Assembly (NCBI GenBank): GCA_965261395.1
Contig: OZ253462.1
Coordinates: 5,472,001 to 5,536,000, forward strand
DNA length: 64,000 bases
Direction of reading: 5' to 3'
Source of the DNA: Candidatus Latescibacterota bacterium
Lineage (GTDB): Bacteria; Latescibacterota; UBA2968; UBA8231
Shown: positions 1 to 64,000 of the stretch, piece by piece
Layout: each line of letters opens with the position of its first letter
Numbering within the stretch: position 1 is the stretch's first letter
Made by a program: the position numbers and the translations under genes
The notes under the pieces: model-generated
The model's database searches: none
The model's input: only the letters and a program-made list of their open reading frames with translations
Told to the model about the DNA's origin: nothing

Positions 1-2
1 TG

Positions 3-1205
3 GCGGAAGGCCCGCCGCTCTTCGACTTGCACCCACTGCAAGCTTCCGTCCGGCGCGAGCGAACCGTCGGATAGTTTCATCCGATAATTGCCCAGTGTGC
101 CTCCGGCACTGCGGGCCGCAGGCGGCAGAAAGTGAAATAGATCCAGCCAGTACAAAGCGCCTAGGTCGAAGAAGACTTGCCGTTCGGGCTCGGCCGCCTC
201 GCGGGTGTAACTCTGCTGCAAGCCGTACCAAGTGGTGTAGTCCCCATCGAGGCTGCGGGTCGGATTAAAGCCGTGCCCTTCCACTGTGCCACCCCGCTGG
301 ATCGCCCCCAGCGATATATTCTCGCCCAAGGTCCAGACCTCGACCTCGGCGAGGCGCGGTTGTTCGCGGCGGTAATAGCGGATCGAACCCCGCTCGGACG
401 GATCGAGCAGCGCATAGGCTTCCTCGTCGAGGAGCCACTCGCTCCCGGAGCGGCTGCGGCCAAAGTACTCCACTGCGCCCTGCAAAGCCGCTGGCAAATT
501 CTGGTAGGCCAAGCTGTCCACTTCCTCGGCCTTGCCCAAGCGGGTGTCCGTCATCACCACCTGCACAAAGCGAAAGGCATCGCCGGTAAAATGGGGATCG
601 GCACTTTGAAAGGGCTCTAGAGCAAAAGAAAATTCGCGTTGGTCAACATTCGGCCGCTCGGTCTTGCCGACCAAGTGATAATCGAGATTATCGCCTACCT
701 TGCCCTCGCCGTCGGCCACCATCAGGCGGAATTGGTAAAACGGATCGCCCGCGCCTGCTTGGGCGAAGCGCAAAACGATGCGCTTGGCCGATACGATCCG
801 CCCCAAGTCAATCGCCACCCACCACAGATTCTGTGGATCGTCTAGGTCGGGCTCCCAGTAGGTATCTACATTGCCGTCGAGGAGGCGCGCCGCCCCGGCC
901 AGACCGGATCCAGCGGCCAGAATCCCCCCCTCCTTTTCGTCCTCGTCGGCCCCTAGAGGAAAGCGGTTCGCATTGAGGCTAGCATTGATTTCCGGTGCCA
1001 CAAAGTGGGGCCTAGCGCCCTCGGAGTCGATATCGACCGTGCCAAAGGGGAACAGCCATTGCCGCCACTGGTCCGCGCCTTGGGTGACAATGAGGTCGCC
1101 TTGGATCGCGTACCCCTCTTGGGCCCCTGCGGCCCGACAACCAAGCGCGACGACCAAAATCCAGATCGCCCAATGCCCGCTCGTCATAGAAATTCTCTTT
1201 TGCAT
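3..1205 (-). CDS. Secreted 'subfamily II' protein, paralog of 58472..61807 (discoidin/F5-8-like N-terminal region); 3'-truncated by the window edge and absent from the ORF track
   Basis: Translated by hand: ATG at 1205, 4 nt after the stop of 1210..3942, and the frame stays open to the edge. MQKRISMTSGHWAIWILVVALGCRAAGA-QEGYAIQG is a signal peptide. LLDGNVDTYWEPD, WVAIDLGRIV, PRLAEVEVW and FDLGALYWLD match LDGDLSTFWEPD, IEVDLGRLV, PRIAEVQVW and YDLGAVFWVD in 58472..61807. Confidence 0.85.
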   Translation of the reverse strand, partial: MQKRISMTSGHWAIWILVVALGCRAAGAQEGYAIQGDLIVTQGADQWRQWLFPFGTVDIDSEGARPHFVAPEINASLNANRFPLGADEDEKEGGILAAGSGLAGAARLLDGNVDTYWEPDLDDPQNLWWVAIDLGRIVSAKRIVLRFAQAGAGDPFYQFRLMVADGEGKVGDNLDYHLVGKTERPNVDQREFSFALEPFQSADPHFTGDAFRFVQVVMTDTRLGKAEEVDSLAYQNLPAALQGAVEYFGRSRSGSEWLLDEEAYALLDPSERGSIRYYRREQPRLAEVEVWTLGENISLGAIQRGGTVEGHGFNPTRSLDGDYTTWYGLQQSYTREAAEPERQVFFDLGALYWLDLFHFLPPAARSAGGTLGNYRMKLSDGSLAPDGSLQWVQVEERRAFR

Positions 1206-1209
1206 TTTG

Positions 1210-3942
1210 CTACTCCAGACCGGCGTAGAACGAAACAAAGACGAGGCTGCCAGTTTTGATCTCGGACTTTCGGCCAACGCGCTCGAACTGGTCCCGATCA
1301 AAGCGCAGGCCGCACTGCATGATCGAGCGGTAGCCCATGTACGTGCCGTAATTGGCCAACTGGATCGCCAAGATCGTCTGCTGGCCATCGCCGGTCCGCT
1401 CGCCCGCAGCCATTTGCTTTATGTCCGTCGCTAGATCGGTGGTGAAGACCTGTTCAACACCTGTCTCAAGCCACGACTCCTTGAGAATGGGGAATCGCAC
1501 GCTGAACGACAGCATCTGTTTCCACCACTGGCGCTCGCTTTCCCGCGCGAGATAGGGGACGTCCCAGAAGAACTCGTTTTTAAGACGCGGACGGATGTGC
1601 ACTCGGCCAATATCGCGGCCGTAATCAGCTTTGTTGACCACGCCCAAAAAGCGCCCGACGCGGCGGGCACCGCGCTCGGTGAGCACCTGCTGCTCGTCGC
1701 GCTGATGCAAGATCTCGTACTTGAATTTGTTGATTACATGCAGGGATTCTATGCCGGTGTAGTCGAACCCTAGCCACGCGCTGTTGATCCAAGTGTTCTG
1801 GGCTGCCAGCGGATCCCCCACCACCGCCTGCTGAGTGCCAATGGCTTGCGGGGCTGCCAAGCGGTCATCCGCTACATTGTCGCGCACCTTCTTCAGGTGC
1901 TCGAAAACGCGCAGGCGACCCATGCCGGGCCAGTCCTGCTCTAGGGTAAAAAGGCCGTACGCCGCCTCGCTGCGTCGCTTGGTTGACAACTGCCACTGCC
2001 GAGTCTGGCCCACGGTCAGGCGCACCTCGGGCACTACATCGACCCCGCCGTACACATTGTATCCCCGCAGATTCCGGTCGTAGGGATAATCGGGATCAAC
2101 GTCGTCTTCAAAGCGGTCGATCCAGCCGTTGTTGTTCATGTCCATGCCAAACAGGAACTCGGGGCGATCGACGTTAAAGCGCAAAAAGGGCTCCTCGTAA
2201 TCAGCCAGTGCATTGCGGCGCGTCGGCGTATCGTTCTGATTGAAATCGGAGATAAAATCGCCGTTTTCGTCCCAACCGGGGAACACCGCCGGATCGGCCG
2301 CCCCCTCGCCGGTGGAAAGGGTTTGCCCCAACCCCGATGACTGCCAGCGGCGCTTTTGGTCCGGGAAGCGGTCCAAGTCGTCGTTGTCGTCGACATAGTC
2401 GTATAAAAAGGACTCTTGATCGACGTAATCGACCCGCCCGTTGGTCTCGGTCATAAAGACGCTGGTGGCGTAATCCGGGCCCATGCTGAAGACTTCGCCG
2501 TACAGAAAATAGGGCGCGCGTGTTTGCGCTAGGTTGACCATCCACGCCTGGGCCTGTCTGGAGGATGTTCGGTGGGTCGCCAGCAAGGGGCTGGGGTACT
2601 GCGCAAAGCGGTGGTTGACGTTTAACTCGGCGTACAGGTCAAAACCCCACAGTTGGCGCACTTCCAAGGTGAGGCCAGCGATCTGATTGGCCGTGGGCAG
2701 ACCGTAGTCAAAACGCAGGGTGCGCCGATTGGAAGTATCGCCGACATTGCCCGGCGCGCTCTCGACTAAGAGAAAGACCGGCTGCGCCTCTATATTGGTC
2801 TGGCGATTCGAAGCCACCTCGACCCGATAATCATTGGCCAAGACCAATTCAAAGCGCACCTCGGCGAGGGAGTCAGCCGTAGTCGGCAGCCACGCAGGCT
2901 CGCCTTCTACCTCCACGACCCGCGCCGCGGCCAAGGCTTCGAGATTGTAGCGCAACACAATGCGGTCGCCGCCGTCGGCCACGGCAAAACCATCGCGCAG
3001 TTCGCCGCCCGTGCGCGACGGCACGTAACCGACCTGAGCGCCGTTCCACTGATGGCCGTTTACATCCTTGAGGAGGATGTTCTCGGCAAAGAGTACGGCC
3101 CCATTCTCGCCATCTTCGGGCGAATCGTCGCCGAGGCGCACCTCGACAAAAGTGACGGCGTTGCTGGCTTGGTCGGTGGTGAGAAACCCCTTGAACATAT
3201 TGCCGGCAAAGCGCTCCAAGGTCGCGCGGCTGTTGTGGCTGTTGACGTACGTACCGCCAACCGTGATGTGATCGCCCAACTGGGTAGTGAGACGCCCGGC
3301 GGTCAATTCCGTGGCATTGGTCAGCCCCACGTCGAACGACGAGGCGGTGACCAGCGGCGCGCTGATGCGCGACAACAGCACCGTGCCGGCGTAGCGGTCC
3401 CGCAGATAGTGGAACTGGACGCCGTTGAAGACGGCCTTGCGAAACGTCATCGGCGTGAGGGTGGTGGCGATTTTATCGCCTAGCGTCAGGGAGAAATGAT
3501 GCTGTCCCTTGGAGTCGGAGGCGATGACTAGATTCTGGAAACTGCCGCCGTAGGGCAGGCCCTTGAGCAGACTGTTGCCCTCCGAGGCCCTCGGCTGTTC
3601 TTTTCTCGCCTCGTAGACCAACCACCCGTGCATCACGCGGCGGCCAAACAGATCGTAGAAGTAATCTCCTTCGAGCGTCGCCGATAGATAGCTGCGATAG
3701 AAATTCCTCGCATAATTGGTGTATTCCCACTGCTTCAGGCGGTGTTCGCTGTACAATTCCTCGGGCATGTACCACTTCTGTACCCGCGGGTCGATGGCGT
3801 TGATGAGCGTGCTGCGGCTGCGCGTGAGAAATTGCAGCTCGACGCCGTGCCCCTGCCCCAAGCGATTGCCGTATTCCTCGGAGCGGAGATCGCCAGGGCC
3901 GAGCGCCAACAGGGCGAGTATGGTAATGACCGCACGTGCCAC
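1210..3942 (-). CDS. ~910-aa exported protein, predicted outer-membrane beta-barrel with acidic Ca-binding-like loops (paralog A)
   Basis: Signal peptide. KWYMPEELY, TTLTPMTFRK, YGLPTANQI, DDNDDLDRFPD and RPEFLFGMDMNNNGWIDRFE are shared with 3945..6674 and 55675..58425. Amphipathic strands in the C-terminal third, ending FVSFYAGLE. Confidence 0.75.
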   Translation of the reverse strand: MARAVITILALLALGPGDLRSEEYGNRLGQGHGVELQFLTRSRSTLINAIDPRVQKWYMPEELYSEHRLKQWEYTNYARNFYRSYLSATLEGDYFYDLFGRRVMHGWLVYEARKEQPRASEGNSLLKGLPYGGSFQNLVIASDSKGQHHFSLTLGDKIATTLTPMTFRKAVFNGVQFHYLRDRYAGTVLLSRISAPLVTASSFDVGLTNATELTAGRLTTQLGDHITVGGTYVNSHNSRATLERFAGNMFKGFLTTDQASNAVTFVEVRLGDDSPEDGENGAVLFAENILLKDVNGHQWNGAQVGYVPSRTGGELRDGFAVADGGDRIVLRYNLEALAAARVVEVEGEPAWLPTTADSLAEVRFELVLANDYRVEVASNRQTNIEAQPVFLLVESAPGNVGDTSNRRTLRFDYGLPTANQIAGLTLEVRQLWGFDLYAELNVNHRFAQYPSPLLATHRTSSRQAQAWMVNLAQTRAPYFLYGEVFSMGPDYATSVFMTETNGRVDYVDQESFLYDYVDDNDDLDRFPDQKRRWQSSGLGQTLSTGEGAADPAVFPGWDENGDFISDFNQNDTPTRRNALADYEEPFLRFNVDRPEFLFGMDMNNNGWIDRFEDDVDPDYPYDRNLRGYNVYGGVDVVPEVRLTVGQTRQWQLSTKRRSEAAYGLFTLEQDWPGMGRLRVFEHLKKVRDNVADDRLAAPQAIGTQQAVVGDPLAAQNTWINSAWLGFDYTGIESLHVINKFKYEILHQRDEQQVLTERGARRVGRFLGVVNKADYGRDIGRVHIRPRLKNEFFWDVPYLARESERQWWKQMLSFSVRFPILKESWLETGVEQVFTTDLATDIKQMAAGERTGDGQQTILAIQLANYGTYMGYRSIMQCGLRFDRDQFERVGRKSEIKTGSLVFVSFYAGLE

Positions 3943-3944
3943 GA

Positions 3945-6674
3945 CTAGAGGCCCAGACCGGCGTACACCGTGATGAAGGTTGTGAAACCGGTCGAGGTCC
4001 TATTCCCCAGGCCAAAATCGGTGGTTTTCTTTTCGACGACTTCCGCCGCCCGGCGCTCGTATTGGAACCCGAGTTGCGTGATCAGTTTATAGCCCAAGTA
4101 ATCGCTGATATTGGTCGCCTGGATCGCCAGGATCGTCTCTCGCTGATCCCCGGTATCCACCCCTTCGGCCCCAGCCGCAACTAAGGCCCCTTCGTCGCTT
4201 AGCAACTCCCAGCGGTAATTTTGTTCCAAGCCCGCTTCTATTTGGGTGCGCGGCATCAGCGGCAGACGAGTGATGAAGAACAGACTCGGAGTCCACTGCT
4301 TGCGCTCGTCTTCGGCCCGCAGAAAGGGCGAATCAATCAGGTACTCGCTTTTGACCCGAGGCATCAATTCCACCCCTGCTATGCCGAGGGAATATTCGGC
4401 TTTATTGATCAGCCCGAAAAAGCGCGAGTCCTGCCGAGCGCCTAGTTCCGCCAATACTTCATCGTCGAGCAATTGATGGAAAAACTCGTACTTGAGCTTG
4501 TTTTCCACCGTCAGGTTGGCCGTGCCCGTGTAGTTGAAGCCCAACCACACGGTGTTGATCCAAGTGTCTCGGGCCGGTAGTACATCCTGCACAGGGAGCT
4601 GCGGCCCGCGGAAAAAGGGCAGGGGCGCGATGCGGTCGTCGGCTATAGTGTCGCGCGCCCGTTTCAGATGTTCAAAAACCCGGATGCGCCCCAGGCCGGC
4701 GATATCCTTGTCAAAGGCGAAGAGGGCGTAACTGGTCTCGCTGCGGCGAGCGGCCGAGATCAACCACTGCCGGGTTCGCCCCGCGGTCAGCCGGGTCTCC
4801 GGCGTCAGGTGGATGCCGCCGTAGGCGTTGTATCCCCGATGGTCGCGCTTGTAGGGGAAGTCGGGCTCGGTGTCGTTCTCAAAGCGGTCGATCCAGCCAT
4901 TGTTGTTGAGGTCAATGCCAAAGAGGAACTCGGGCCGGTCGCTGTGGTAGCGCAGGAAGGGTTCTTCGTAATCGGGCAACTGATTCTCGCGCGTGCGGTT
5001 GTCATTTTGGTTGAAGTCATTGATGAAATCGTTGTTCTCGTCCCAGCCCGGAAAGACCTCGATATCGGGACCGGCCTGGTAGGTGCGCCCCCAGTCGGGG
5101 GTGCGGTCTTGGTCGTCGTTGTCCTCGACGAACTCGAAGAATCGGTTCTGGGTCGAATAGTCGATGACGCCCCGCTGGTCGCTGAGAAAAATGCTGGTCG
5201 CGTAGTCTTTGCCCATGCTGAAGGCCTCGCCATAGACAAACCACGGATAGGCGTTTTTCGCCGCGTTCAGCATCCAGGCGTCGGCCCGCCGCGCAGCCGA
5301 TTCGTGGTCGCCTTCTACATTGGGGTTGGGGTACTTCCTGAATCGGTGGTTGACCGCGTACTCGGCATAGGTGTCAAAGCCCAAGAAGCTCGTCGTCGCG
5401 AGGTGGAAGCCGAAAATTTGGTTGGCGGTGGGCAAACCGTAGTCAAAGCGCACCAGCCGCTGGTTCGAAGTATCGCGCACATTGCCGTCGGCCCGGACGA
5501 TTAGCAGGGGGTGGAATTCTCCGGCGCGACTCAGTTGGCGGTTGGAGGCCATCGACACCTTGTAGTCGTTGGCCAGTACCAACTCGAACGCGACCTCGAC
5601 GATGGTCGAGGGGTCGGGGCCCAGATAGGCGCGGTCGGAAAAATCGTAGATCAGGCGAATGGTCTCGTCCCCGTCCGCAGCCAAAAAGCCCCCCTGCCGC
5701 TGGAAACCGCCCTGGACGAGGGGCGTGAAGTTGATCTCCTTGCCCGTGATGGTTTCGCGCTCGCCAGTATTGAAGTCGCGGATGGCAGTGATGATGATAT
5801 TTTGCGAAAACAGCGCCGCCCCACCCCGGCCGTCGGCGGGCGAATCGTCTTCGAGTAGGATTTCGATGCGGGTGACAGCGCTGCTGTTCTGATCGACGGT
5901 CAAATCGCCTTGGGCGCGGCCACCGAGAAAGCTCTCCAACAGCGTATTGGACTGGTGGGCGTTGATGTACGTGGTCCCCAAGGTGACGAAATCGCCCACC
6001 TGAGCGGTAAAGTGGCCGCCGAGAAAATCGGTGGTATTCGACACGCCCGTGGGTACGGCACCGACGGCGACGCCCACTTGGTTGGGGGCGCTGATGCGCG
6101 ACATCAGCACCGTAGCCTGGTACTTGTCCGAGGCGAAATCGGCTTGGATGCCATTGAAGGCCGGCTTGGAAAAAGTCAGCGGCGTCAGCGTCGTGCGAAT
6201 GCTGTTGCCAATGGTCACCGCGTAGTGGTTCTGGCCCTTGCTGTCGGAGGCGATCAAGACGTTGTTGAACCAAGAGCCGTAGCGGCTGTCCTTGAAGACC
6301 GTGCTGCCAAACTCGGCCGGTTGCTGCCGGCGCATGTCGTAGATCAGCCAACCTTGGGTGACAAAATTGCCGTAGAGGTCGTAGAAGTAATTGCCCTCTA
6401 TGGCCGTATTGACGTAGCGCTGATAATTCTCGCGGGCGTAGTTGTTGTACTGCCAAGGCCGCCAGCGGTACTCGTTGTAGAGTTCCTGGGGCACGTACCA
6501 GCGTTTGAGGGTCGGATCGAGGGCGTCAAAGAGCACGCCCGGCCCCCGAGGTTCATACGACACCCGACCGCCGCGCTGCACCCCGAGGCGAGAGCCGTAA
6601 TCCTGCGCTTGGAGCCCATCTGGACTCAGCAAGCCGCTGAGGAGCAGGAAAACCAACCCGTATTTGCCATACAT
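3945..6674 (-). CDS. ~910-aa exported predicted beta-barrel protein (paralog B)
   Basis: Signal peptide ending LQA-Q, SD GGAGG upstream, the same conserved blocks as paralogs A and C, and the end FITVYAGLGL. Confidence 0.75.
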   Translation of the reverse strand: MYGKYGLVFLLLSGLLSPDGLQAQDYGSRLGVQRGGRVSYEPRGPGVLFDALDPTLKRWYVPQELYNEYRWRPWQYNNYARENYQRYVNTAIEGNYFYDLYGNFVTQGWLIYDMRRQQPAEFGSTVFKDSRYGSWFNNVLIASDSKGQNHYAVTIGNSIRTTLTPLTFSKPAFNGIQADFASDKYQATVLMSRISAPNQVGVAVGAVPTGVSNTTDFLGGHFTAQVGDFVTLGTTYINAHQSNTLLESFLGGRAQGDLTVDQNSSAVTRIEILLEDDSPADGRGGAALFSQNIIITAIRDFNTGERETITGKEINFTPLVQGGFQRQGGFLAADGDETIRLIYDFSDRAYLGPDPSTIVEVAFELVLANDYKVSMASNRQLSRAGEFHPLLIVRADGNVRDTSNQRLVRFDYGLPTANQIFGFHLATTSFLGFDTYAEYAVNHRFRKYPNPNVEGDHESAARRADAWMLNAAKNAYPWFVYGEAFSMGKDYATSIFLSDQRGVIDYSTQNRFFEFVEDNDDQDRTPDWGRTYQAGPDIEVFPGWDENNDFINDFNQNDNRTRENQLPDYEEPFLRYHSDRPEFLFGIDLNNNGWIDRFENDTEPDFPYKRDHRGYNAYGGIHLTPETRLTAGRTRQWLISAARRSETSYALFAFDKDIAGLGRIRVFEHLKRARDTIADDRIAPLPFFRGPQLPVQDVLPARDTWINTVWLGFNYTGTANLTVENKLKYEFFHQLLDDEVLAELGARQDSRFFGLINKAEYSLGIAGVELMPRVKSEYLIDSPFLRAEDERKQWTPSLFFITRLPLMPRTQIEAGLEQNYRWELLSDEGALVAAGAEGVDTGDQRETILAIQATNISDYLGYKLITQLGFQYERRAAEVVEKKTTDFGLGNRTSTGFTTFITVYAGLGL

Positions 6675-6704
6675 AAGAAACGCCCTCCCACAGGTATCGC
6701 TTGT

Positions 6705-8825: not shown

Positions 8826-8871
8826 GCGTTTCTTTCTATAGCAGTCCTATTATGACTTAAACGATTCAGGT

Positions 8872-8939
8872 TGCGGATCATCTTGTTTCTACTATTCTGC
8901 GTCCATCTGCGTCCATCTGCGGATCGTCTAGTTTCTACT
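8872..8939. repeat. Imperfect 22-nt direct repeat (46-nt period) enclosing a short CTGCGTCCAT tandem repeat
   Basis: tgcggatcatcttgtttctact (8872-8893) vs tgcggatcgtctagtttctact (8918-8939); ctgcgtccat x2 plus ctgcgg at 8897-8922. Confidence 0.7.
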
Positions 8940-9804: not shown

Positions 9805-9829
9805 AGTATTCCCTCCTGTGGGATTCCGC

Positions 9830-53148: not shown

Positions 53149-53151
53149 TTT

Positions 53152-54813: not shown

Positions 54814-54831
54814 AACGTTCTCACCTGTGTA

Positions 54832-54871: not shown

Positions 54872-54905
54872 CTAGTTGAATTTGGCTTGTGAACCTTGTG
54901 CTGCA

Positions 54906-55664
54906 CTATTGGCTGGTCGCCACCTTGCGCCCGTCGGGATAGATGCGGCCAATCTCGCGCTCAAAGTGCATTTCGACGTCCGTACCTTCTATGGGATCGC
55001 CCTTGTAATCGAAACGCACCACCACATCGGGAATGTGGACGGTTAGATTCTCCACATCCGGGGCCAGCGGCTTGAAGACAACATACCCTTCGTTCTCTTG
55101 GGCGCTGAACACATCCTCATCGGGAAACATCGTGCGCCGCAAGATGCTGTCGCGCTCTTTCAAGACCTCCAAGGCATTGCCGGACATCCCAGGGTCGTTG
55201 CCGCCGCTGCCGCTACCGACGTAGCGGCTATAATATATTTTGAGCTGTTCACGCCTCAGCGCGTAGTACTTGCGCCCGTTAGAGGTGGTTATATTGACCT
55301 TTTTAGGGTCGAGATAGACCTTGGGGTATTCGTAATTAGAAACGTATATGCGAAAGACGGTGAAGCGCTGCGGGGTGTCCCCAGTGCGAAAGTACGTCGA
55401 GTTGCCAAACGTGTAGGGGTTGCGCGAGTCGGGCCCCTCGTTGGAGTACGCGCTGAATTGGCGATTCAACTCCGCGTCGGTCATCGGCCGCAGGCTGATC
55501 TCAAGGCGCGCCTGTGTATAGGACACGGTGCCATCATCGGCCACTGTCTTGTTAGTCCCTTGCTCGGCCTCGCTCAGCGGCTTGAGATCTTCAGCATAAT
55601 AGCGATAGGAGCATCCCGGAAAAATCAGCCCGACCAGAAGCAGCGGTGTGAAACATTTCAGCAT
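54906..55664 (-). CDS. Hypothetical lipoprotein (paralog of 38035..38781)
   Basis: ATG 55664 with SD GGAGG; FPGC lipobox-like; same conserved blocks as the paralog. Confidence 0.8.
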   Translation of the reverse strand: MLKCFTPLLLVGLIFPGCSYRYYAEDLKPLSEAEQGTNKTVADDGTVSYTQARLEISLRPMTDAELNRQFSAYSNEGPDSRNPYTFGNSTYFRTGDTPQRFTVFRIYVSNYEYPKVYLDPKKVNITTSNGRKYYALRREQLKIYYSRYVGSGSGGNDPGMSGNALEVLKERDSILRRTMFPDEDVFSAQENEGYVVFKPLAPDVENLTVHIPDVVVRFDYKGDPIEGTDVEMHFEREIGRIYPDGRKVATSQ

Positions 55665-55674
55665 GGGAAACCTC

Positions 55675-58425
55675 CTACTCATAACCGGCGAACACAGTGA
55701 CGAATATGGCCGTTTCAGTGCGCGCCTTTTGGGCTGAGGCACGATCAATCCGCGACACGCGAAACCCAGTCTGGGTCCACAGGTTGTAGCCTAGGTATTC
55801 GGCGTTGTTGGTAAACTGCAAGGCATAGACCAACTCGTTGCGATCCGAGCGCAGCAAATGGGTTTCCAACTCCTCGCGGAACTGCTCGACGAGCAGATAC
55901 TCTAGGCCGGTCTGTAATTCGGTGCGCGACAGAATCGGCACGTGCAGGACCAGCGACCACAGCTCGCGCAACTCGGTGGTCGCCACCCGCACCTGTGTAT
56001 CCTGGCGACGCGAGGGCCGCTGACGCTGAAACTCGCTCTTCCAACGCGGCTGTAACTTGAGGACCCCGAGGTTGAGCGTATAATCGATCTTGTTGAGGAC
56101 GCCGAAGAAGGAAGCCGTCTCGCGGATGTCCTGCTCATCAATTGGCCGCTCGTCGAAATTGGACTGTTTGAAAACCTCCCACTTAAGGCGGTTCTTGAAG
56201 TGGATGTAGTCGCTCTGGTACTGATAGCCGAGATACAAAGTATTGGCCCAACCATCGCGCAGGGGCAAGGGATCAGTATAGGGCACGAGGTCGCCGCGTG
56301 ATCCCTCTCGTACAACCCACTCAATCACATGGTCGCGGATATCGTCTCGGACCTGCCGGTAGTTGTTGTACACCTGCACGCTCCCCTTACTGGCGTAGTC
56401 CTTGTCAAAGGTCAGCAAGGCGTAATTGGTGGCGTTCTCGCGGGCCTCGGCTAGCTGGCGCTCGTCGAGGCGACCAACGGTCAGCCGCGCCTCCGGCCCC
56501 AAATGGGAACCCACGTAGATGTTGTACCCGCGCCGATCCCGTTTGTACAGGTAGTCGGGTAGGTTGTCGTTTTCAAAGCGGTCGATGATACCGTTGTTGT
56601 TCATATCAATGCCAAAGAGGAACTCGGGGCGATCGGATGCGTAGCGCAAGAACGGCTCATCGTAATCGGGCGCTGTGTTCTCGCGCAGCTCGGAATCGTT
56701 CTGATTGAAGTCGTTGATGAAGTCGTTGTTCTCGTCGAACCCTGGGAAAACCTCTCTATCCTGCGAGAAATTAGCCCGCTGCCAGTCGGGATTTCGGTCT
56801 TGGTCGTCGTTGTCGTCGACGAATTCGTAAACGAAACGGAGGTCGTCGTCGTAGTTTATATCTGCTGCATCGTTTTGGGTACCGGCTAGAAAGGAGCTGG
56901 TGCTGTAGTCGTGATCAACATTATAGACTTCGCCGAAGCCAAAGTAGGGATAAGCGCGTTTATATACGTTGACGAACCAAGCGTCGGCCGAGGTGTTGTG
57001 CGCCGTGTGCTGGGTCACGTCGGTTTCCGACCGCCGCGGATAGCGGAAGTGCTGGCGGTTGCGGTCGTATTCCCCCGATAAGTAAAACCCACTGATATCC
57101 GTAATATCGAGCGTAAAGCCAAATATCTCATTGGCCACCGGCAACCCGTATTTGACGCGCACAAAGCCCTGATTCGAGCCATCTTGCACGTTGCCGTCGG
57201 CGCGCACCGTGCGTTCGGGAACGCCTTCGGAGAGCAAGACCGGCTGACCATTGGCGTTGAGCTGGCGGTTGGAGGTAACGTCGATCCGGTAGTCGTTGGC
57301 CAAAAGCAACAGAAACTCAATGCTCTTGATCTGCTCGGGCTGGGGGCCGAAGGAGTTGCGGTACTGCGGGCCTTCTAGATCGTACACCAGCACGATGACC
57401 TCGTTGCCATCGGCCGAAAGGAATCCTTCGCGGCGGAAGCCGCCCTGCACCGCCGGGCTAAAGTCGAGGATGTTGTTGTTGCCGATGCGGCGGCGATTGC
57501 TGATGCGCTCGCCGTCAATTGTTGTAATGATCATCTCCTCCTGAAAGAAGGCCGTGCCCGCCTTACTGTCCTCGGGCGAATCGTCGCTCAAGCGCACTTC
57601 GATACGCGAAACGTCGGCGTTGTTCTGGCCCTCGGTGAGTGTGCCCTTGAAGGGGTTGCCCTGAAATGCCTGCCCCTTAGTCGAGGAGTTGAAAGCATTG
57701 ATGTAAGTCGCTCCCAACTTGACAAAGTCGCCGACCTGCATGGTGCCACGGCCGCCGATCAAGTTGGTGTCGTTCGAGCGGAAACGACCGGAGCTAGTCG
57801 TCTGCGCCGTTTCGACCTTACCGGGTGAACTGGGGCGCGAGGTGAGAAAGGTCGCCTCGTATTTGTCCGTAGAAAAGTCGAACTGAATACCGGCAAAGGT
57901 CGGCTTGGAAAAGGTCATCGGCGTCAGCGTCGTGCGGATGCGGTCGCCAATGGTCAGGGCATAGGCGTATTGGCCCTTCTGATCTGAGGCGATGACCAAG
58001 TTCGTAAACCAGCTACCGAATCGGGGGGTTTTAAACAGGCTGCTGCCCGATGTCTGCGGTGCTGCAATGCTCCAGTCGTAAATGAGTTCGCCGCGGGTGA
58101 TGTAATTCCCGTAGAGATCGTAGAAATAGTCGCCTTCTTGGCTGGTGTTCACATAGCGCGAATAATGCCGACGGGCGTAATTGGTATAGTCCTGTTGCCG
58201 CCATTGGTACTCGTTGAAGAGCTCCTGCGGCACGTACCACTTCTTCACCGCTGGATCCAGCGCGTCGAAAAGTATCCCCGGCCCAGTAGGGTCGTAAAAA
58301 ACCTCCCCGCCACGGCGCACGCCCAAGCGCGAGCCGAAATCTTCCTGTGCGGGAAGATTTTCCACCATCGCTCCCAACATCAGGATCGCCACCGCACCGG
58401 TGCGGAAACTCCTAACTATGTCCAC
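55675..58425 (-). CDS. ~910-aa exported predicted beta-barrel protein (paralog C)
   Basis: Signal peptide ending PA-Q; FGSRLGVRRGG, KWYVPQEL, DDNDDQDRNPDW, RPEFLFGIDMNNNG; ends FVTVFAGYE. Confidence 0.75.
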   Translation of the reverse strand: MDIVRSFRTGAVAILMLGAMVENLPAQEDFGSRLGVRRGGEVFYDPTGPGILFDALDPAVKKWYVPQELFNEYQWRQQDYTNYARRHYSRYVNTSQEGDYFYDLYGNYITRGELIYDWSIAAPQTSGSSLFKTPRFGSWFTNLVIASDQKGQYAYALTIGDRIRTTLTPMTFSKPTFAGIQFDFSTDKYEATFLTSRPSSPGKVETAQTTSSGRFRSNDTNLIGGRGTMQVGDFVKLGATYINAFNSSTKGQAFQGNPFKGTLTEGQNNADVSRIEVRLSDDSPEDSKAGTAFFQEEMIITTIDGERISNRRRIGNNNILDFSPAVQGGFRREGFLSADGNEVIVLVYDLEGPQYRNSFGPQPEQIKSIEFLLLLANDYRIDVTSNRQLNANGQPVLLSEGVPERTVRADGNVQDGSNQGFVRVKYGLPVANEIFGFTLDITDISGFYLSGEYDRNRQHFRYPRRSETDVTQHTAHNTSADAWFVNVYKRAYPYFGFGEVYNVDHDYSTSSFLAGTQNDAADINYDDDLRFVYEFVDDNDDQDRNPDWQRANFSQDREVFPGFDENNDFINDFNQNDSELRENTAPDYDEPFLRYASDRPEFLFGIDMNNNGIIDRFENDNLPDYLYKRDRRGYNIYVGSHLGPEARLTVGRLDERQLAEARENATNYALLTFDKDYASKGSVQVYNNYRQVRDDIRDHVIEWVVREGSRGDLVPYTDPLPLRDGWANTLYLGYQYQSDYIHFKNRLKWEVFKQSNFDERPIDEQDIRETASFFGVLNKIDYTLNLGVLKLQPRWKSEFQRQRPSRRQDTQVRVATTELRELWSLVLHVPILSRTELQTGLEYLLVEQFREELETHLLRSDRNELVYALQFTNNAEYLGYNLWTQTGFRVSRIDRASAQKARTETAIFVTVFAGYE

Positions 58426-58471
58426 AAATACCCTCCCTTGATGTCGAATTCCGGTCCGAACTGCTGCTTTA

Positions 58472-61400
58472 TCAATAAGCCACGTGAACGAGGCGCGTCA
58501 ATTTGCTATCTTGATCGTCGGCTTCTACCTTGATCTGACAGAGATAGATCCCCGGCGGCACGATGTGCCCACCCAGATCCCGACCGTCCCACACAAACGC
58601 CTGCGTCCCTACCTTGCCACCAGTCGCCAAGCTCTGCCCTTGGCCTACCAAGCGTCCTCCCAAATCGTACAATGCAACTTCCAACGGACGCTCCTCCTGC
58701 ACCTTCAACAAAACAAAATGCACCAAGAGCTCGTCGTTGATCCCGTCGCCATTGGGCGTAAAGACGGGTGCCAGCTCTACGTCTTGGATCAAAGACCCCC
58801 GCAGAGCCATCAAGCTGACCTGCGCCGTCGAAGAATCCACCAACTCGGTCGCATCCTTATCGGCGGTGTCCACCCGTTGGAATACGCCCTCATCCGAATC
58901 CGAAGACCGCACAAACGAGGCGAATTCAACGCCCTCGCGGAAGCTCTGCGACGCAAACTGCACCTCAATGAGGGCGTGCTGGCCAGCCGGCAGATCAGCA
59001 TTGAGCGAAAAGGGAAAACGCACCCAGATCGAATCCTCACCGGTCGCCATGCGTTCCAACACCTCGCCATCTATCTCGCGCAAAACCCCGTCGTCGCCCG
59101 GGGCAAAGGCACGGTCAAACTGCGTGGTCGTCGCCGAGGTCAGCACTTCCTCCGGGTTGAGGAGCGAGGACGTCTGGGCGATGGCGACCTGTCCCAAGCG
59201 CACGCCGGTCAAGCGCGCAGCACGCGACGCGACGACCAGCACCTCGTTAAAGCCGTCGCGCACCGTCGCATCGGTCGGATCGGGCGCGGCAGCGCGGATG
59301 AAATAAGAAAACTGCTGCGGAGCGAGCGGATCGATATTGCGCGGCGGGATGTAGTCCGAGGTCTGCACATCCAAGTCGGTCGGCACGCGCGCGGCTCCCT
59401 CTTCGGTGAGAAGCGCCAACTCACCGGCCAGTTCTAGCGCCAGCGGTGGGGCCAGCTCAATGCGCAAACTGCGGATGCGTGCCGTCTTGAAGGGATCCTC
59501 GGAGGAAATATTGACCCGCACCTGAATGAACTTGCGCGGGTTGGGCGAAGTGATCGTGGCCTCGTTGACGCCATTGGTGGGCAGATAGCTTTCGCTCCAC
59601 TCGCTCCAACCGACGAAGGCCAGTTCGCCGTCTTTGTCAAAGCTCGACCGCGGCGCCCGGCGCAGTTTCTTGCCGTCCTCGTCCACGAGGCCGTCGCCAT
59701 CGTTGTCAATCAGATCAATCGGATCCTCGTCGGTGACCCCGTCGCCATCGTCGTCCGTGCGCGAGGCGTGTTGCTGGCTGGCGGGCAGGGTCTGCCAGAT
59801 CTCCCAGGCCGTCCACTTCAAGGCGATATCGTCGTAGACCTCTTTCGCCACTTCCTCGCGCTCTTCGCTGCCGGCGATGGTCACGACTTGATAGTACGTG
59901 AAGTTGCTGTCGGTCTGGTCGGAGGTGCGAGTCTGTATCTGCAAGCGGACATCGGGGTGGAGATCCAGGGGCTCGATCCGCTCGACGGCTTGGCCGGTGA
60001 ACGGATCGGTCTCGCGGACGACTACATCGCCTTCCCAAGCAATGCGCGGCAGGGTTTTGCGAATGAAGTTGCCACGTGAATCAGTCAGCGTAATCGGCGG
60101 TGAGTAGGCCCACACGCTGACCGGATAGCCTTCGCCGTAGAGCTGAATCTCGCCCAAGGTCGCCAGCGCGCCGTAGCGACCGGATACCTGCCCGGTGACG
60201 TCGATATCGCGGATTTGCAGAAAGCGGATCTTGCGCCGGGGAAAAGTCTCGCGGAAAATGCGCACTACCGGCGTGTGGTTATCGATGTGCTCCTCACTGA
60301 TGATGTTGTCCCACTTGAGAGATTCTTCGAGCAGGGGGAAGTCTTCGCGGTCGTTCATGCTCACGGGTTTGAGCAGCGTGCCGTCAGAGACTAAGATATC
60401 CGGCCCCAAGAAGGCCCCTTGGTGACTCTGGTTGATGCGCTTGTTGACTACCGAGACATTATCGACCCAAAACACGGCCCCTAAGTCGTACCAGGCCGTG
60501 CCCTTGAGGTAAATCGGCGACCACGTATTGGCCTGCCACTCCGAGTCGTAGAGCCCGTCGGTGGCCAAGTTGGGCGCGCCCAAACCGCCGTTTTCAAACG
60601 AAGCCCCGCCACGCCTTTCTGGCTGCAGCGCGTAGTTGTCGCCCTTAGCCCAGACCTGAACCTCGGCGATACGAGGAACTTCTTTGCTGTAATAAAGAAT
60701 CGGACCGCGCTTCCCCTCGGGTAAGGTTTGGTATTTTTCGCCGGCGGTCTGATTGGCATCGTCCTGGAGTTCGACGAGTAGGCCACCGGCAGTTTGGCGC
60801 TGATAGACGATCGCACCGCGCTGCTCTTGGGGCAATGCTTCATAGGCAAGACGCGCCTCTTCGTCAGCACCTAAGAAGGAATCACGCCAGAGATCCGAAT
60901 CCGTAATTTTGATGCGGACGTAATGGATGAAGGCACCGCTAATATCGGGCAGGCCATCCAAATCCCAGTCGGCCCGATCCAGCGGCAAGAGCGGGAAGGT
61001 CATCTGCGCATAGCGACCTTCGGTTCCGGGCATCGAAACCAGCGTTACTTCACCGGTCTCACCCCCTCCCCCACCTGCACAGCGGGTCTCGCCGGCGTAG
61101 CCCGAGCCTTCATCGCGTACACACTGGGCCAATTTGCCGGCGACGAAGCCAGTAGATACTTGCCCTATGAGGGAAAACTTGAGGTTGTTGCCCAAGGGAA
61201 AGGGAAAACGCTCGCCCATCGAGGCGAAAAGCGCGAAGGACTTGACCGGCTCGCCGAGGAACTCGTCTTCGAACTGACCAGCGGGAAAGATGATCGTCAG
61301 GCTATCGGCAAAGACCAACCGTCCCAAATCAACTTCGATTTCCCAGTTGCGCAGGCCGTCGAGATTGAAGTCCCCAGGGCGGGTCAAACGACTCGCAAAA

Positions 61401-61807
61401 TCGGCCGGCGTGTCCGGCTCCCAGAAGGTACTCAAGTCGCCATCGAGGACATTATTGGCCAAGGCATCGTTGGATTTGGCCGTCGCGCCCCCGGAGATTA
61501 GATCACCACCAGCACGAACCAAATCAGGATAGGTGAAATCGACAGCCGTCGGGGCCGCGTTGATATTGCGGCGAAAAAACGTCGGCCGCAGCCCATCGGC
61601 TTCAACTCGGAAAATATCCGCATCGCCGATTGACACGTTCAATTGGGAGACCAAGTCGTTCTGATAACTCCAGTTCTCCCAGTGCGAAGCCCGATCCACG
61701 CGGATCGAGTTGCCAAAAATCCTATAGGCATCCGTTTGAGCCAGACAGAAACTAGGCAGAGATAGTACGGCGAAGAGAGCCGTCTTCCACTTTAGCAGCC
61801 GTTTCAT
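58472..61807 (-). CDS. Secreted 'subfamily II' protein with C-terminal CTD/FlgD-Ig-like domain
   Basis: Signal peptide LA-Q; discoidin-like motifs; two DxDGDGxxDED repeats; WSEWS, SPNPRKFIQ; VFTPNGDGIND, WDGRDLGG..PPGIY; ends VHVAY. Confidence 0.8.
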   Translation of the reverse strand: MKRLLKWKTALFAVLSLPSFCLAQTDAYRIFGNSIRVDRASHWENWSYQNDLVSQLNVSIGDADIFRVEADGLRPTFFRRNINAAPTAVDFTYPDLVRAGGDLISGGATAKSNDALANNVLDGDLSTFWEPDTPADFASRLTRPGDFNLDGLRNWEIEVDLGRLVFADSLTIIFPAGQFEDEFLGEPVKSFALFASMGERFPFPLGNNLKFSLIGQVSTGFVAGKLAQCVRDEGSGYAGETRCAGGGGGETGEVTLVSMPGTEGRYAQMTFPLLPLDRADWDLDGLPDISGAFIHYVRIKITDSDLWRDSFLGADEEARLAYEALPQEQRGAIVYQRQTAGGLLVELQDDANQTAGEKYQTLPEGKRGPILYYSKEVPRIAEVQVWAKGDNYALQPERRGGASFENGGLGAPNLATDGLYDSEWQANTWSPIYLKGTAWYDLGAVFWVDNVSVVNKRINQSHQGAFLGPDILVSDGTLLKPVSMNDREDFPLLEESLKWDNIISEEHIDNHTPVVRIFRETFPRRKIRFLQIRDIDVTGQVSGRYGALATLGEIQLYGEGYPVSVWAYSPPITLTDSRGNFIRKTLPRIAWEGDVVVRETDPFTGQAVERIEPLDLHPDVRLQIQTRTSDQTDSNFTYYQVVTIAGSEEREEVAKEVYDDIALKWTAWEIWQTLPASQQHASRTDDDGDGVTDEDPIDLIDNDGDGLVDEDGKKLRRAPRSSFDKDGELAFVGWSEWSESYLPTNGVNEATITSPNPRKFIQVRVNISSEDPFKTARIRSLRIELAPPLALELAGELALLTEEGAARVPTDLDVQTSDYIPPRNIDPLAPQQFSYFIRAAAPDPTDATVRDGFNEVLVVASRAARLTGVRLGQVAIAQTSSLLNPEEVLTSATTTQFDRAFAPGDDGVLREIDGEVLERMATGEDSIWVRFPFSLNADLPAGQHALIEVQFASQSFREGVEFASFVRSSDSDEGVFQRVDTADKDATELVDSSTAQVSLMALRGSLIQDVELAPVFTPNGDGINDELLVHFVLLKVQEERPLEVALYDLGGRLVGQGQSLATGGKVGTQAFVWDGRDLGGHIVPPGIYLCQIKVEADDQDSKLTRLVHVAY

Positions 61808-61841
61808 AGCATTTCCTTTCTTTTCGCGTTTCTAGCTAAGG

Positions 61842-63998
61842 CTAATACGCTACGGAAACGATGCGCGTCTGGGCCTTGCCCGCATGATCGGCTTCGGTCG
61901 AAATGCGCAACATGTATAGGCCCGGAGGCACTATCTGTCCAGCATCGTCGCGACCGTCCCACTGTTGCGAATACCCTCCCGACGACAAACGGAGCTCAAT
62001 GAAGTGCAGGCACCGACCGTTTAAATCGAATATCTCCAGATACACCGGCTTCGGCGTTAGCAGCCGCTGGACGTCAAAAGTCACGACTACTTCGTCGTTG
62101 ACGTCGTCGCCATTAGGCGTAAAAGGATTGGGCGCGACCTTGAAATTGGTCACGAGGTTCTCGCTCTGCGCTGAAATATCGGCGATCACCGCTAGGGAAT
62201 TACGATCTGAGAGCTGGTCCGTCGCGACGAAATCAACCACGTCATTGTCCTCTACTCGCTGTGGCAAGAAAATGGCCAGCGTATCGAGCGCACTCTCGCT
62301 ACCCCCGAGCGCCAAAATGCCGCTCCTGGTAAAGTGTCGCTCTGTTTCTGCACCTAAGGTGTCTAAGAAGACATTGGCAGCGAAGTTGGTGCGGAAGTCG
62401 ATGACCCGACCCTGAAAGCGGACTTTTACCAATGCGTTGCGAACTTGGCCATCCTCGGCTGGGCTGATGGTCGGAAAACCAACGACGAACTGATCGTCGG
62501 CAACGTACAATTCTCGAAACTGACCTTCGCCGATTTTGCCCTCGCCGTCCATTCTTTCCAAGTTCAGGAACTTCCCGTCGCCTAGATCCACTTCCACCCC
62601 CTTAATGGCCTCTGTGCGCGCCGGAGTAAAAACCTGCAAGCGATTAAAGCCGTTGTTCTCGGCCCCTAACCCAGCGTTGAGGACCAGTACAAAGGAGGTG
62701 TCGCGGCCAGCGATCACATCCACGGCCGGAGCAATCTCGCCGAAGACCTGATCCGTGATCTGTGGGGCGGAGTATTCAAAGCGCAAGTTGCTAATAATTG
62801 TGGCCGCCTCAGGCTCCTTGCTCAGAAACTCAACCTCTATCTGAATGAAGGGCCGACCACTTGGCGCGTTGATTAGCTCGCCGTTATTGACCAACTGGAC
62901 ACCACTCCAGAACTCAAGCTCGGGTTCGACGTGACGCCGCTCATTGCCCGGCAGGGCCTTGTACTCGTCGCGGGTAAGCCGCACGCGTTGGCGATCCTCT
63001 GGTAGGGCGGCGCTGAAGAGTTCGCGTGCATCTAGGTTGAGTTCGGGATCGTTCAGGTCCACCCCTTGGCCGAAGGTCCTAGAGCCGAGCCGTTGATCAA
63101 TGATGATCGCTCCTTCCTCTTTCCACTCCACCTCGCGCTCAAAATCGTTGACGCGAAAAAGCACATCCGGCTCGGGATTGACGCCTGTCTGTACGCGCAC
63201 GATAGCGCGCGACCTGTTGGGATCGCCAATTTTTCGCTCGTCCCAGAAGATCCGCCCCAAGGTCGCCGGGGGCAGCGGTAGTGCATTGGAAGTATAAACC
63301 GCTTCAGGAAAAAAACCGTCGGCAAAAAACTCCATTTCAGCCAAGTCGTAATCCAGCGGAGTCTGAAAATCAAAGCGCGCATAGCGCATGTAGGCCTGCG
63401 GATTAAAGGCCACGGCAATGGTGTCTTCCACATTGACCGGTACGCTTGCCTCGGAAACGAAGGTTGGAAAAGTCGAGGCTATCTTAGCGAACGTAGGGAA
63501 CGCCAACTGCCCAATTTTTGGATCGTCGAGACTAAGACCGGCGATTACCTTCTCAGTCCCAGGCAGACCCCTATAAAAGGTATAAGCGGAAACACGCGCG
63601 GGCTCTTCAAGACTGGGATAGAGGCGGAACAAGCTAATTGGAAAGTAGCGTCCCAAGTCAATATAGAGGGACCATATCTGCTTGACGTCCTGCCCGACTC
63701 GGTCGATGCGCTCGAAATGGGTCAGTGGATCGCCATCGAAAACGCGCCCTAGCCCCTCTTGGAGTCGCTGGCCGGTCAAAGTCCTTTCAAAAATGCCGAG
63801 AGTCGTGAGGTTGAGCCCCTTGTTGTACTTGTCGCCGCCGGGAGGGCGGGGAAAAGATTCGGCCACGTTGATCATGGCCTCAATCTCGGCAATGCCAGCC
63901 CGGCGCAATAGCTGGACGGCCTCTAGGCTACGCGGAAAGGAACTCCAGCGAGGGACCAAGACCGTGCCCGCCTTTACAATCGCACCATCGTCGAGTTC
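61842..63998 (-). CDS. Secreted 'subfamily I' protein with C-terminal CTD/FlgD-Ig-like domain; 5'-truncated by the window edge
   Basis: The frame stays open upstream of 63959 (ELDDGAIVKAGTV...). IDLGRYFPI, LAEMEFFADGF, PNPFTPNGDDVND, WDGRDDAG..PPGLY; ends VSVAY. Confidence 0.8.
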   Translation of the reverse strand, partial: ELDDGAIVKAGTVLVPRWSSFPRSLEAVQLLRRAGIAEIEAMINVAESFPRPPGGDKYNKGLNLTTLGIFERTLTGQRLQEGLGRVFDGDPLTHFERIDRVGQDVKQIWSLYIDLGRYFPISLFRLYPSLEEPARVSAYTFYRGLPGTEKVIAGLSLDDPKIGQLAFPTFAKIASTFPTFVSEASVPVNVEDTIAVAFNPQAYMRYARFDFQTPLDYDLAEMEFFADGFFPEAVYTSNALPLPPATLGRIFWDERKIGDPNRSRAIVRVQTGVNPEPDVLFRVNDFEREVEWKEEGAIIIDQRLGSRTFGQGVDLNDPELNLDARELFSAALPEDRQRVRLTRDEYKALPGNERRHVEPELEFWSGVQLVNNGELINAPSGRPFIQIEVEFLSKEPEAATIISNLRFEYSAPQITDQVFGEIAPAVDVIAGRDTSFVLVLNAGLGAENNGFNRLQVFTPARTEAIKGVEVDLGDGKFLNLERMDGEGKIGEGQFRELYVADDQFVVGFPTISPAEDGQVRNALVKVRFQGRVIDFRTNFAANVFLDTLGAETERHFTRSGILALGGSESALDTLAIFLPQRVEDNDVVDFVATDQLSDRNSLAVIADISAQSENLVTNFKVAPNPFTPNGDDVNDEVVVTFDVQRLLTPKPVYLEIFDLNGRCLHFIELRLSSGGYSQQWDGRDDAGQIVPPGLYMLRISTEADHAGKAQTRIVSVAY

Positions 63999-64000
63999 GA

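Follow-up and report, generated by a model that had tools for sequence, protein, structure and literature searches.

Candidate parts of a conserved envelope system with type IX secretion cargo in a Latescibacterota genome

Do the repeated envelope genes in one stretch of a Latescibacterota chromosome form a secretion machine of their own, or are they parts of something larger? The stretch (the window, 64 kb at positions 5,472,001–5,536,000 of the single 6.55-Mb contig of a Candidatus Latescibacterota bacterium, about 60% G+C) encodes secreted proteins with the C-terminal domain (CTD) of type IX secretion system (T9SS) cargo, large proteins of about 910 amino acids, lipoproteins, peptidyl-prolyl isomerases (PPIases) and an ExbB/ExbD motor. 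Marker genes put the completeness of the genome at 95% and its contamination at 8%. The initial annotation, made from the letters of the window, saw in these genes a single envelope machine related to the T9SS, and a non-canonical one for want of SprA. The best explanation is a different one, that Latescibacterota and neighbouring candidate phyla of the Fibrobacterota-Chlorobiota-Bacteroidota (FCB) group share a conserved, hitherto undescribed envelope system, of which the window carries some parts, namely one motor module that lacks the large proteins and two satellite cassettes. As to its role, we give an even chance to an accessory, motor-coupled system that anchors or handles lectin-like proteins exported by the T9SS.

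Window proteins were taken from a listing of open reading frames (ORFs), scanned for Pfam and NCBIfam domains and compared all against all by blastp. Cargo proteins of about 620–940 amino acids are called C, and those of 904 and 1111 amino acids L. X denotes the proteins of 909–916 amino acids, B proteins like carbohydrate-binding module (CBM) family 9, Li a lipoprotein, V a small barrel, T a giant tetratricopeptide repeat (TPR) protein and U a protein with DUF4159.

A gene train, its copies and the T9SS

Might these families lie together by chance? Species-representative genomes were scanned with a profile of the X proteins that are embedded in such gene trains, which gave 72 loci. The 10-kb flanks of 63 loci from 47 assemblies, picked by X alone, were annotated with profiles of the paralogues of the present genome. 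What emerges is a compact train: CTD cargo, V, one to three X (about 900–1000 amino acids), T (about 1100 amino acids), ExbB, ExbD, U and Li. T directly follows X at 48 of the 63 loci (40 assemblies), and ExbB directly follows T at 30 of the 63 (29 assemblies). A CTD gene is directly upstream of X or V in 49/63 cases, and V stands directly before X in 26/63. Li is present at 46/63 loci and U at 30/63, where trains elsewhere place it after ExbD. The whole train, in the order CTD, V, X, T, ExbB, ExbD, U, Li, is found in records with KSB1, Zixibacteria or Zhuqueibacterota in the title (L078, L100, L072) and in two titled ‘uncultured Cytophagia’. Distant Latescibacterota carry related arrangements, e.g. 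CTD cargo, V, X, X, X, T (G015), C, V, X, X, T, DUF5683 (G012) and C, X, X, PPIase, B (G009). The initial annotation had proposed a check of co-occurrence and synteny over FCB genomes; on the side of synteny, the train recurs in several phyla. Because the train is conserved in many genomes, X, V, T, ExbB/ExbD, U and Li are taken to be functionally linked. Chance clustering of the families is ruled out by the cross-phylum synteny counts.

In distant genomes the gene after the one for the giant TPR protein encodes a DUF5683 protein of about 200 amino acids, which in the present genome is found beside DUF4159 genes (L027:16282–16878, L030:12387–13028, L020:8631–9272 and L021:17589–18179); the window has none. 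It is a candidate for a further part of the system.

In the present genome the train is split and multiplied, with motor modules as hubs and cargo-X cassettes as satellites. A profile search of all genome ORFs finds 46 X genes. Six are divergent and score 270–425 bits, against more than 770 for the remaining 40, and these six are exactly the ones that lie within clusters of TPR, DUF4159 and motor genes. In the X tree these six fall together with the train-embedded X from distant genomes, and a separate ‘satellite’ clade holds the remaining 40, with all three X of the window among them. By a tblastn map the genome has 129 C, 21 L, 28 PPIase, 24 B, 14 Li and 13 GT-C glycosyltransferase genes, together with 11 DUF4159, four T, four V, four ExbB and six ExbD genes. 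There are five paralogous motor clusters with combinations of T, Li, a V-like protein of about 310 amino acids, ExbB/ExbD and/or U, and the window holds one of them. Such numbers do not agree with one envelope machine made up of the window's genes. In one motor cluster an AAA_22 ATPase gene (L022:10247–11824, i.e. G000:C1:4616247–4617824) lies between CTD cargo and X.

Which genes keep company with X? The layout of a satellite cassette is a lectin-like CTD gene, directly followed by X and then by Li, a lipoprotein PPIase and/or GT-C. Up to 400 bp upstream of X and on its strand, the closest family gene on the map is a C for 18 of the 46 X, an L for four and another X for nine. Thus 31/46 X stand behind C, L or X, and several of the other 15 follow a partly mapped L gene. 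The zone within 10 kb of any X amounts to 12% of the genome and contains 24/28 PPIase, 11/14 Li, 18/24 B, 10/13 GT-C, 16/21 L and 77/129 C genes. All three copies of a GDSL esterase-like gene are near X, and GT-C is directly downstream of X in five cassettes.

Is the T9SS itself wanting? SprA, missed in the window, is encoded elsewhere in the genome by an ORF of 2156 amino acids (C1:2064938–2071408; TIGR04189, 593.8 bits against a cut-off of 200). PorU is encoded about 72 kb to the right of the window (NF033707, 618 bits, cut-off 420). The gene beside it reaches 233 bits with PorV_fam (cut-off 90) and 157 with the PorV equivalog model, which asks for 250. A PorU-like CTD is carried by at least 50 further ORFs, out of the 51 scored from 220 candidates. 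The label ‘non-canonical’, so far as it rests on a missing SprA, is therefore not supported. Downstream of porU-porV there are also a relative of the ‘T9SS-dependent M6-like inactivated metalloprotease’ (288 bits, cut-off 600) and a TolB-like propeller protein of 1036 amino acids; the coordinates of the two are L024:5634–8375 and 2406–5516.

The motor and ring proteins of the canonical system are another matter. The models of GldL, GldM, GldK and GldN were used without a positive control. For GldL and GldM, the genome has no match to TIGR03513 or TIGR03517 at E ≤ 0.001, nor to PF12081 at E ≤ 0.1, with 14 control genomes silent as well. GldN gave no match at E ≤ 0.1, and GldK only partial FGE-domain matches of at most 70 bits (cut-off 350). 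For want of a positive control, these negatives do not establish absence. GldM was also without a match in five X-less relatives and six genomes of other phyla, as was GldL in the same five, at a sensitivity that is unvalidated. A genome search for sprA, porU and porKLMN, suggested in the initial annotation, has thus found the first two and left PorK, PorL, PorM and PorN undetected by models of this kind.

How general is the pairing of X with the T9SS? Among 151 genomes sampled from the phylum, SprA occurs in 146 and X in 93. X is present in 63/63 genomes of the window's own family, and in 0/30 and 0/19 of two sister families. As SprA is near-universal and X is missing from whole families, X is an accessory of T9SS-bearing cells and not a core T9SS part. 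Li was found in 0/5 X-less genomes, a hint only, given the single protein query. Outside Latescibacterota-titled records, SprA is present in six of six train-bearing genomes.

Barrels, cargo and motor in the window

The genes of the window fall into co-directional groups. Two of these are satellite cassettes, at 3–8825 (C706, X909, X910, L) and 51130–63959 (C705, L1111, X916, Li, PPIase, GDSL). The motor module at 31220–39758 consists of B, Li, V, T, ExbB, ExbD and U, and a further group at 8935–12769 of B329, C620 and a metallo-beta-lactamase-fold gene. Outside the groups stand a PPIase (13038–14735), C631 (17457–19352) and C937 (40003–42816). To place all of these ‘in tightly coupled operons’, as was done at the outset, is too strong: co-directional groups exist, but there are several, and metabolic genes separate them.

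Are the proteins of about 910 amino acids barrels? X910 (1210–3942, the second of a tandem pair), X909 (3945–6674) and X916 (55675–58425; 916 amino acids) are all of the satellite type and on the minus strand. The three paralogues share 38–48% identity across about 910 amino acids; X910 and X916 are 47% and 48% identical to X909 and score 1271 and 1303 bits with the X profile. Pfam and NCBIfam give them no match, and in particular no Plug, TonB-dependent-receptor, usher or POTRA domain. When 8,000 candidates were scored, more than 1,100 relatives appeared at E ≤ 0.001; those with a name are all ‘hypothetical’, and none has a Pfam domain. Mean column identity in an alignment of 30 sequences is 55%, with the strongest blocks at the mature N-terminus and in an Asp/Asn-rich stretch. 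The C-termini read YAGLE or similar. The 30 aligned sequences have no invariant or near-invariant cysteine, and X lacks the C-tail twin cysteines of SprF.

The AlphaFold2 model of X909 (pLDDT 69.7, predicted template modelling score 0.64) has long antiparallel strands at 138–487 and 612–906, in two runs of beta-hairpins. Foldseek matches it only to outer-membrane barrels, i.e. LptD (E 5e-7), MtrB, Deinococcus SlpA and ushers, to E 1e-4, at a template modelling (TM) score of about 0.2; the likeness to PapC and FimD, also at about 0.2, is generic. A VIA search, which is independent of Foldseek, returns FhaC, BamA, TamA and porins with Z of 12–14. Since the fold matches are limited to outer-membrane barrels, X is read as a barrel without a close solved relative, and the X proteins are predicted to be large outer-membrane beta-barrels. 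The X profile has no match among sequences of solved structures at E ≤ 1, and hhalign finds no relation to the V/PorV alignment (probability 0.04%). The initial annotation had called these proteins dedicated barrels or anchors and had named a soluble, non-barrel fold as the case that would speak against it. The model resembles barrels only, and the genes do lie directly behind those of CTD cargo; it is this part of the claim that holds. A complex prediction of the X barrel (136–909) with the CTD of the upstream cargo (585–706) scored 0.00, was run without controls and is evidence for neither side.

The cargo can be described with more confidence. Seven proteins form one superfamily, with pairwise blastp E values of 1e-20 to 0. 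Six had been credited with a visible CTD, as blastp and Pfam confirm, and the seventh has one too. It is an L-type surface protein of which the window holds the 5' part (3–1388, minus strand; F5/8 type C domain, 31.8 bits), with 26.7% identity to the N-terminal half of the 1111-amino acid L1111 (blastp, E 1.5e-28). The gene continues past the left window edge; the full genomic ORF has 904 amino acids, and its C-terminus reaches 109 bits with a CTD profile made from the genome's own CTDs. Therefore all seven superfamily proteins carry a CTD. The whole genes are C706 (6705–8825, minus, 30 bp upstream of X; FlgD_ig 34.7 bits), C620 (9830–11692, minus; CHU_C 39.5 and FlgD_ig 35.2 bits), C631 (17457–19352, plus, 49% identical to C620; CHU_C 36.7 and FlgD_ig 35.3 bits), C937 (40003–42816, plus, divergent from the motor module; FlgD_ig 39.3 and CHU_C 35.1 bits), L1111 (58472–61807, minus, 46 bp upstream of X916; CHU_C 25.2 and FlgD_ig 20.2 bits, both under the cut-off of 27) and C705 (61842–63959, minus, first gene of the right-hand cassette; CHU_C 27.8 and FlgD_ig 27.0 bits). 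One or the other domain reaches the Pfam cut-off in 5/6 whole genes (CHU_C in four, FlgD_ig in five), and the CTD region of L1111 aligns with other cargo at E 1e-20 (blastp).

C706 is a lectin-like, all-beta protein. Its AlphaFold2 model (pLDDT 90.2) consists of CBM32-like jelly rolls, Ig-like domains and a terminal CTD sandwich, and the fold matches are CBM32 and the galactose-oxidase N-domain (TM 0.76 to 4a41). Neither domain nor fold comparison finds a catalytic domain in it. A protein-atlas search with C706 returned only unnamed clusters of the same phyla, as did one with Li. Sequence searches of solved structures with L1111, V and Li gave nothing informative.

The motor module lies on the minus strand throughout. 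U (31220–32581) has N-terminal membrane helices and a C-terminal DUF4159 (90.5 bits), and its best PDB match is an uncharacterised protein (E 0.003). The Pfam scan finds no TonB C-terminal domain in it. The ‘TonB-like protein’ of the initial annotation is accordingly TonB-like in its membrane-anchored shape and not in its domain. Directly upstream of it in the module is an ExbD/TolR-type subunit (32620–33027; PF02472, 98.9 bits). The Asp of its membrane helix is present (MIDVVF, in the helix MIDVVFQLL), and from E. coli ExbD we take it to be the proton-binding residue. Further upstream are an ExbB/TolQ-type subunit (33059–33712; PF01618, 80.7 bits) and T (33755–37006), a protein of 1083 amino acids with YbgF-type repeats in 10 stretches (286.6 bits) and 111 bits with the PorW/SprE model, under the cut-off of 250. 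V (37064–37999, ending in SFSYEF) stays under every curated cut-off: 77.1/90 for PorV_fam, 49.7/90.55 for PorP/SprF and 46.9/220 for PorQ. By these scores it appears to be a relative of the PorV/PorQ/PorP kind of small outer-membrane barrel, and a weak member. A solitary second copy of V at G000:C1:4258935–4259822 is 97% identical over 889 nt, with neighbours that are not duplicated, and looks like a recent single-gene duplication.

The module is completed by Li (38035–38781; 248 amino acids, lipobox LLGC), which belongs to no known family by Pfam, NCBIfam or solved structures and is 46% identical (E 1e-76) to the Li of the right-hand cassette, and by B326 (38778–39758), a secreted CBM9-like protein (CBM9_1, 26.3 bits, cut-off 23.4) and the module's first gene. 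A second secreted CBM9-like protein, B329 (11780–12769, minus), is 30% identical to it (E 5e-29). The order B, Li, V, T, ExbB, ExbD, U is that of the train in other genomes, minus X and the CTD gene. Its intergenic gaps are 35–57 bp and so leave no space for X or CTD remnants.

In the right-hand cassette, Li (54906–55748, minus; a lipobox Cys is present) is an ORF of 280 amino acids whose true start is probably more internal. It is followed by a lipoprotein parvulin-type PPIase of 584 amino acids (53152–54906, minus; Rotamase 65.9 bits, lipobox VAGC) and, as the last gene, by a GDSL-type esterase-like protein (51130–53148, minus; Lipase_GDSL_2, 47.9 bits). The other lipoprotein PPIase, parvulin/SurA-like and of 565 amino acids, is at 13038–14735 (plus; Rotamase_2 58.7 and Rotamase 43.6 bits, lipobox LSAC), and a GT-C (PMT_2) glycosyltransferase with a TPR tail is at 42871–44967 (plus; PMT_2, 53.5 bits). 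The initial parts list is thus confirmed for the PorV-like barrel, ExbB/ExbD, the giant TPR protein, the two paralogous lipoproteins, the two lipoprotein PPIases and the GT-C enzyme, by Pfam and NCBIfam matches, blastp and lipoboxes. Metatranscriptome contigs from two studies (95–99% identity) cover the GDSL gene, PPIase, Li, X916 and part of L1111, and bridge the Li/X916 and X916/L1111 junctions. No RNA-library contig covers 61343–64000 (C705), which is uninformative.

What else does the window hold? The metabolic stretch between the groups, 19374–31119, carries aldolase, PhyH, GH42, BNR, dihydrodipicolinate synthase (DHDPS)-like and 5-enolpyruvylshikimate-3-phosphate synthase genes by Pfam. 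Within it, 21410–29956 is a catabolic block of HpcH-type aldolase, PhyH dioxygenase, MORN-repeat, BNR sialidase-like, GH42 beta-galactosidase and DHDPS-family (lyase-like) proteins. A DUF6785/DUF6784 membrane protein (19374–21407) adjoins the aldolase and PhyH genes; relatives are found beside another motor cluster of the genome (L020:9530–10405) and, in a distant genome, next to a U-X-X-X cluster (L025:19252–19911). FG-GAP/ASPIC-UnbV (CRTAC1-like) proteins at 14738–16537, 44933–46603 and 49257–51155 alternate with TPR proteins (46500–49432); of about 50 genomic copies of the family, 18 have an X gene within 10 kb. Two ORFs without a family match, 8822–9343 (173 amino acids) and 23609–23992 (127 amino acids), are probably not real genes. 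The first overlaps the metallo-beta-lactamase-fold gene (8935–9840) in another frame, and the second a gene of 519 amino acids (23784–25343).

What the system might do

The analysis shows which families the genes belong to, that X models as a barrel and the cargo as a lectin-like protein, how often each gene occurs and in what conserved order, and that the genome encodes SprA, PorU and PorV. From these we infer protein contacts, an export route and an action of the motor. Cargo would be exported via the canonical SprA translocon, with the PPIases as its periplasmic chaperones. After export, the cognate barrels X and V would receive it and hold it in the outer membrane. ExbB/ExbD, U and T might couple the proton-motive force across the periplasm to these barrels or to their cargo. 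There are precedents for several of these steps: the SprA complex of Flavobacterium johnsoniae carries a PPIase (PMC7463736), type B CTD proteins depend on adjacent barrels of the PorP/SprF kind and bind to them (PMC9143113, PMC12618676), SprF is tied to a moving track, and C-tail twin cysteines of the SprF type are disulfide-bonded to GldK (PMC12635249).

A number of points weigh against accessory anchoring or handling. X is not required for the T9SS as such, judging from gene counts over the phylum (SprA 146/151, X 93/151). The window's own motor module is without X and without a CTD gene, and motor parts show no strong enrichment in the 10-kb X zone (U 3/11, T 2/4, V 1/4, ExbB 1/4, ExbD 2/6). 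The cargo CTDs seem intermediate between type A and type B, with NCBIfam scores under both cut-offs (TIGR04183, 16–22 against 23; TIGR04131, 19–28 against 35), and only the Pfam models CHU_C and FlgD_ig pass. By sequence, X bears no likeness to PorP, PorV or PorQ, is three times their size and has no SprF-type conserved cysteine. The X model is of middling confidence; the conserved region 16–143 and an acidic block at about 514–567 are unmodelled, and its strands were counted by eye. The RNA-library contigs do not exclude DNA carry-over and give no expression level. Finally, every protein contact in this scheme is a proposal read from genes.

Could X be an import channel? CBM32- and CBM9-like proteins might capture glycans, and X might take them up, in an energised functional analogue of SusC/SusD; ExbB/ExbD and the TonB-shaped DUF4159 protein would gate X by way of its conserved N-terminal region. 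The cargo is lectin-like and non-catalytic, and B is CBM9-like. A motor of the ExbB/ExbD type with a membrane-anchored periplasmic protein is the Ton layout, and the mature N-terminus of X is very conserved yet unstructured in the monomer model. Cassettes lie amid sugar-catabolic genes (GH42 and BNR, and a sulfatase in L025), and their many paralogues recall the multiplicity of polysaccharide-utilisation loci. X, however, has no Plug or TonB-dependent-receptor match, whereas 22 Plug-domain matches elsewhere in the genome (21 over the cut-off), in ORFs of about 530–1085 amino acids, have the classical receptor signature. U has no TonB C-terminal domain, and most motor modules are not beside a satellite X. 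Uptake would also leave the PorV/PorP-like barrel, the per-cassette PPIases and the GT-C enzyme unexplained. We consider it unlikely, if worth keeping in mind.

A bolder idea, which we rate as rather improbable, is a second T9SS architecture in Latescibacterota, KSB1, Zixibacteria and related FCB phyla. SprA, PorU and PorV would be kept, the ExbB/ExbD-DUF4159-TPR train would replace the PorLM motor and the PorKN ring, and X would provide cargo-specific exit or anchor ports fed by dedicated PPIases.

Or might export bypass SprA altogether? Each X would then be an usher- or TpsB-like exit port for the protein encoded upstream, with the lipoprotein PPIase as its chaperone. X is directly behind the cargo gene, 24/28 PPIase paralogues are near X, the fold matches include ushers and FhaC/TpsB barrels, and a barrel this large could pass a polypeptide. 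But the cargo has T9SS-type CTDs in a genome that keeps SprA, PorU and PorV, the CTD-lectin genes (150) are about three times as many as the X genes (46), X has no POTRA or usher domain match, and the fold matches are generic (TM about 0.2). The proposal seems to us quite doubtful. The first reading in its literal form, one T9SS without SprA and PorKLMN, with X as barrels and ExbBD and a TonB-like protein as energy source, can draw on the cross-phylum synteny of the parts, on the lack of GldL, GldM, GldN and full GldK matches in the genome and on that of GldM in 11 other genomes and GldL in five of them, but it is very improbable: these searches had no positive control and silent control genomes, the genome does encode SprA, PorU and PorV, the window contains pieces of a system present in many copies, with a module devoid of X, and X-less families of the phylum still have SprA.

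If accessory anchoring or handling is the right reading, a barrel family that no database describes serves, in several uncultured FCB phyla, to link a Ton/Tol-type proton motor with surface proteins of the T9SS type. The scale is considerable, with dozens of loci in some genomes and, here, 46 X and about 150 cargo genes. The system is of interest for the way in which T9SS cargo is energised, sorted and anchored in bacteria other than Bacteroidota, in which no PorLMKN were detected here. The cargo-barrel pairs form a large natural collection, usable for studies of specificity, and the lectin-like cargo points to cells that attach to glycans of a host or of the environment, or capture them. The literature searched, which did not cover subscription journals, holds no description of an X/motor system and nothing that links Latescibacterota with the T9SS, and mentions DUF4159 only in the Pfam database paper. 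A Latescibacterota genome paper (PMC12993501) has no mention of secretion, T9SS, outer membrane, gliding, TonB or adhesion terms. What the window contributes is the hub-and-satellite picture within a single closed genome, a motor module without X and synteny counts across phyla.

Comparison with known systems

How does the system compare with those already described? SusC/SusD loci resemble it in their surface glycan-binding proteins beside an outer-membrane barrel of about 1000 amino acids, in the use of ExbB/ExbD energy and in their many paralogous loci. They differ in the barrel, as X has no Plug/TonB-dependent-receptor domain and the classical Plug proteins (22 matches) are separate in the genome. 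They differ also in the binding proteins, which here have T9SS CTDs and there lipoprotein anchors.

The Agl-Glt core complex of Myxococcus xanthus and its homologues (AglR/Q/S, GltD, GltE, GltG, GltC; PMC3169522) have, as here, a TolQR/ExbBD-type motor whose genes cluster with those of large TPR proteins and of a membrane protein of TonB shape. The motor there is linked with barrels in the outer membrane and with an adhesin on the surface, and the genes suggest a similar layout in the present genome. Several copies per genome, with a function unclear in most carriers, are found there, and multiple copies also here. There is, however, no hidden Markov model membership: the one match of the GltE model is the GT-C/TPR protein, whose 57 bits fall short of the cut-off of 225. 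DUF4159 forms the transducer head in place of a TonB-like motif protein, the barrels are of another family, and the adhesins are T9SS-CTD lectins, in contrast to the von Willebrand factor A (VWA) lipoprotein of Myxococcus.

The closest parallels lie with the PorP/SprF-type B system of Bacteroidota (SprB-SprF, PG1035-PorP-PorE; PMC9143113, PMC12618676, PMC12635249). Both have a CTD at the end of the cargo, here of the CHU_C type by Pfam in four of six whole genes, a barrel gene directly downstream of the cargo gene and many cargo-specific pairs per genome. Both have a TPR-containing periplasmic partner (PorE and PorW in Bacteroidota), a proton-driven motor in the same system and a small barrel of the PorV/PorQ/PorP kind, here V as a weak member. 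The differences are in the parts. X has about 900 amino acids, as against about 300 for PorP/SprF, about twice the strands, no profile likeness and no C-tail cysteines. The motor is ExbB/ExbD instead of GldL/GldM, and the DUF4159 protein, Li and the per-cassette PPIases have no counterpart in the Bacteroidota system. The handling of cargo by its cognate X and V would resemble that of type B CTD adhesins by the PorP/SprF shuttles. X has 46 copies in this one genome, far more than the type B substrates of F. johnsoniae, of which 12 are reported.

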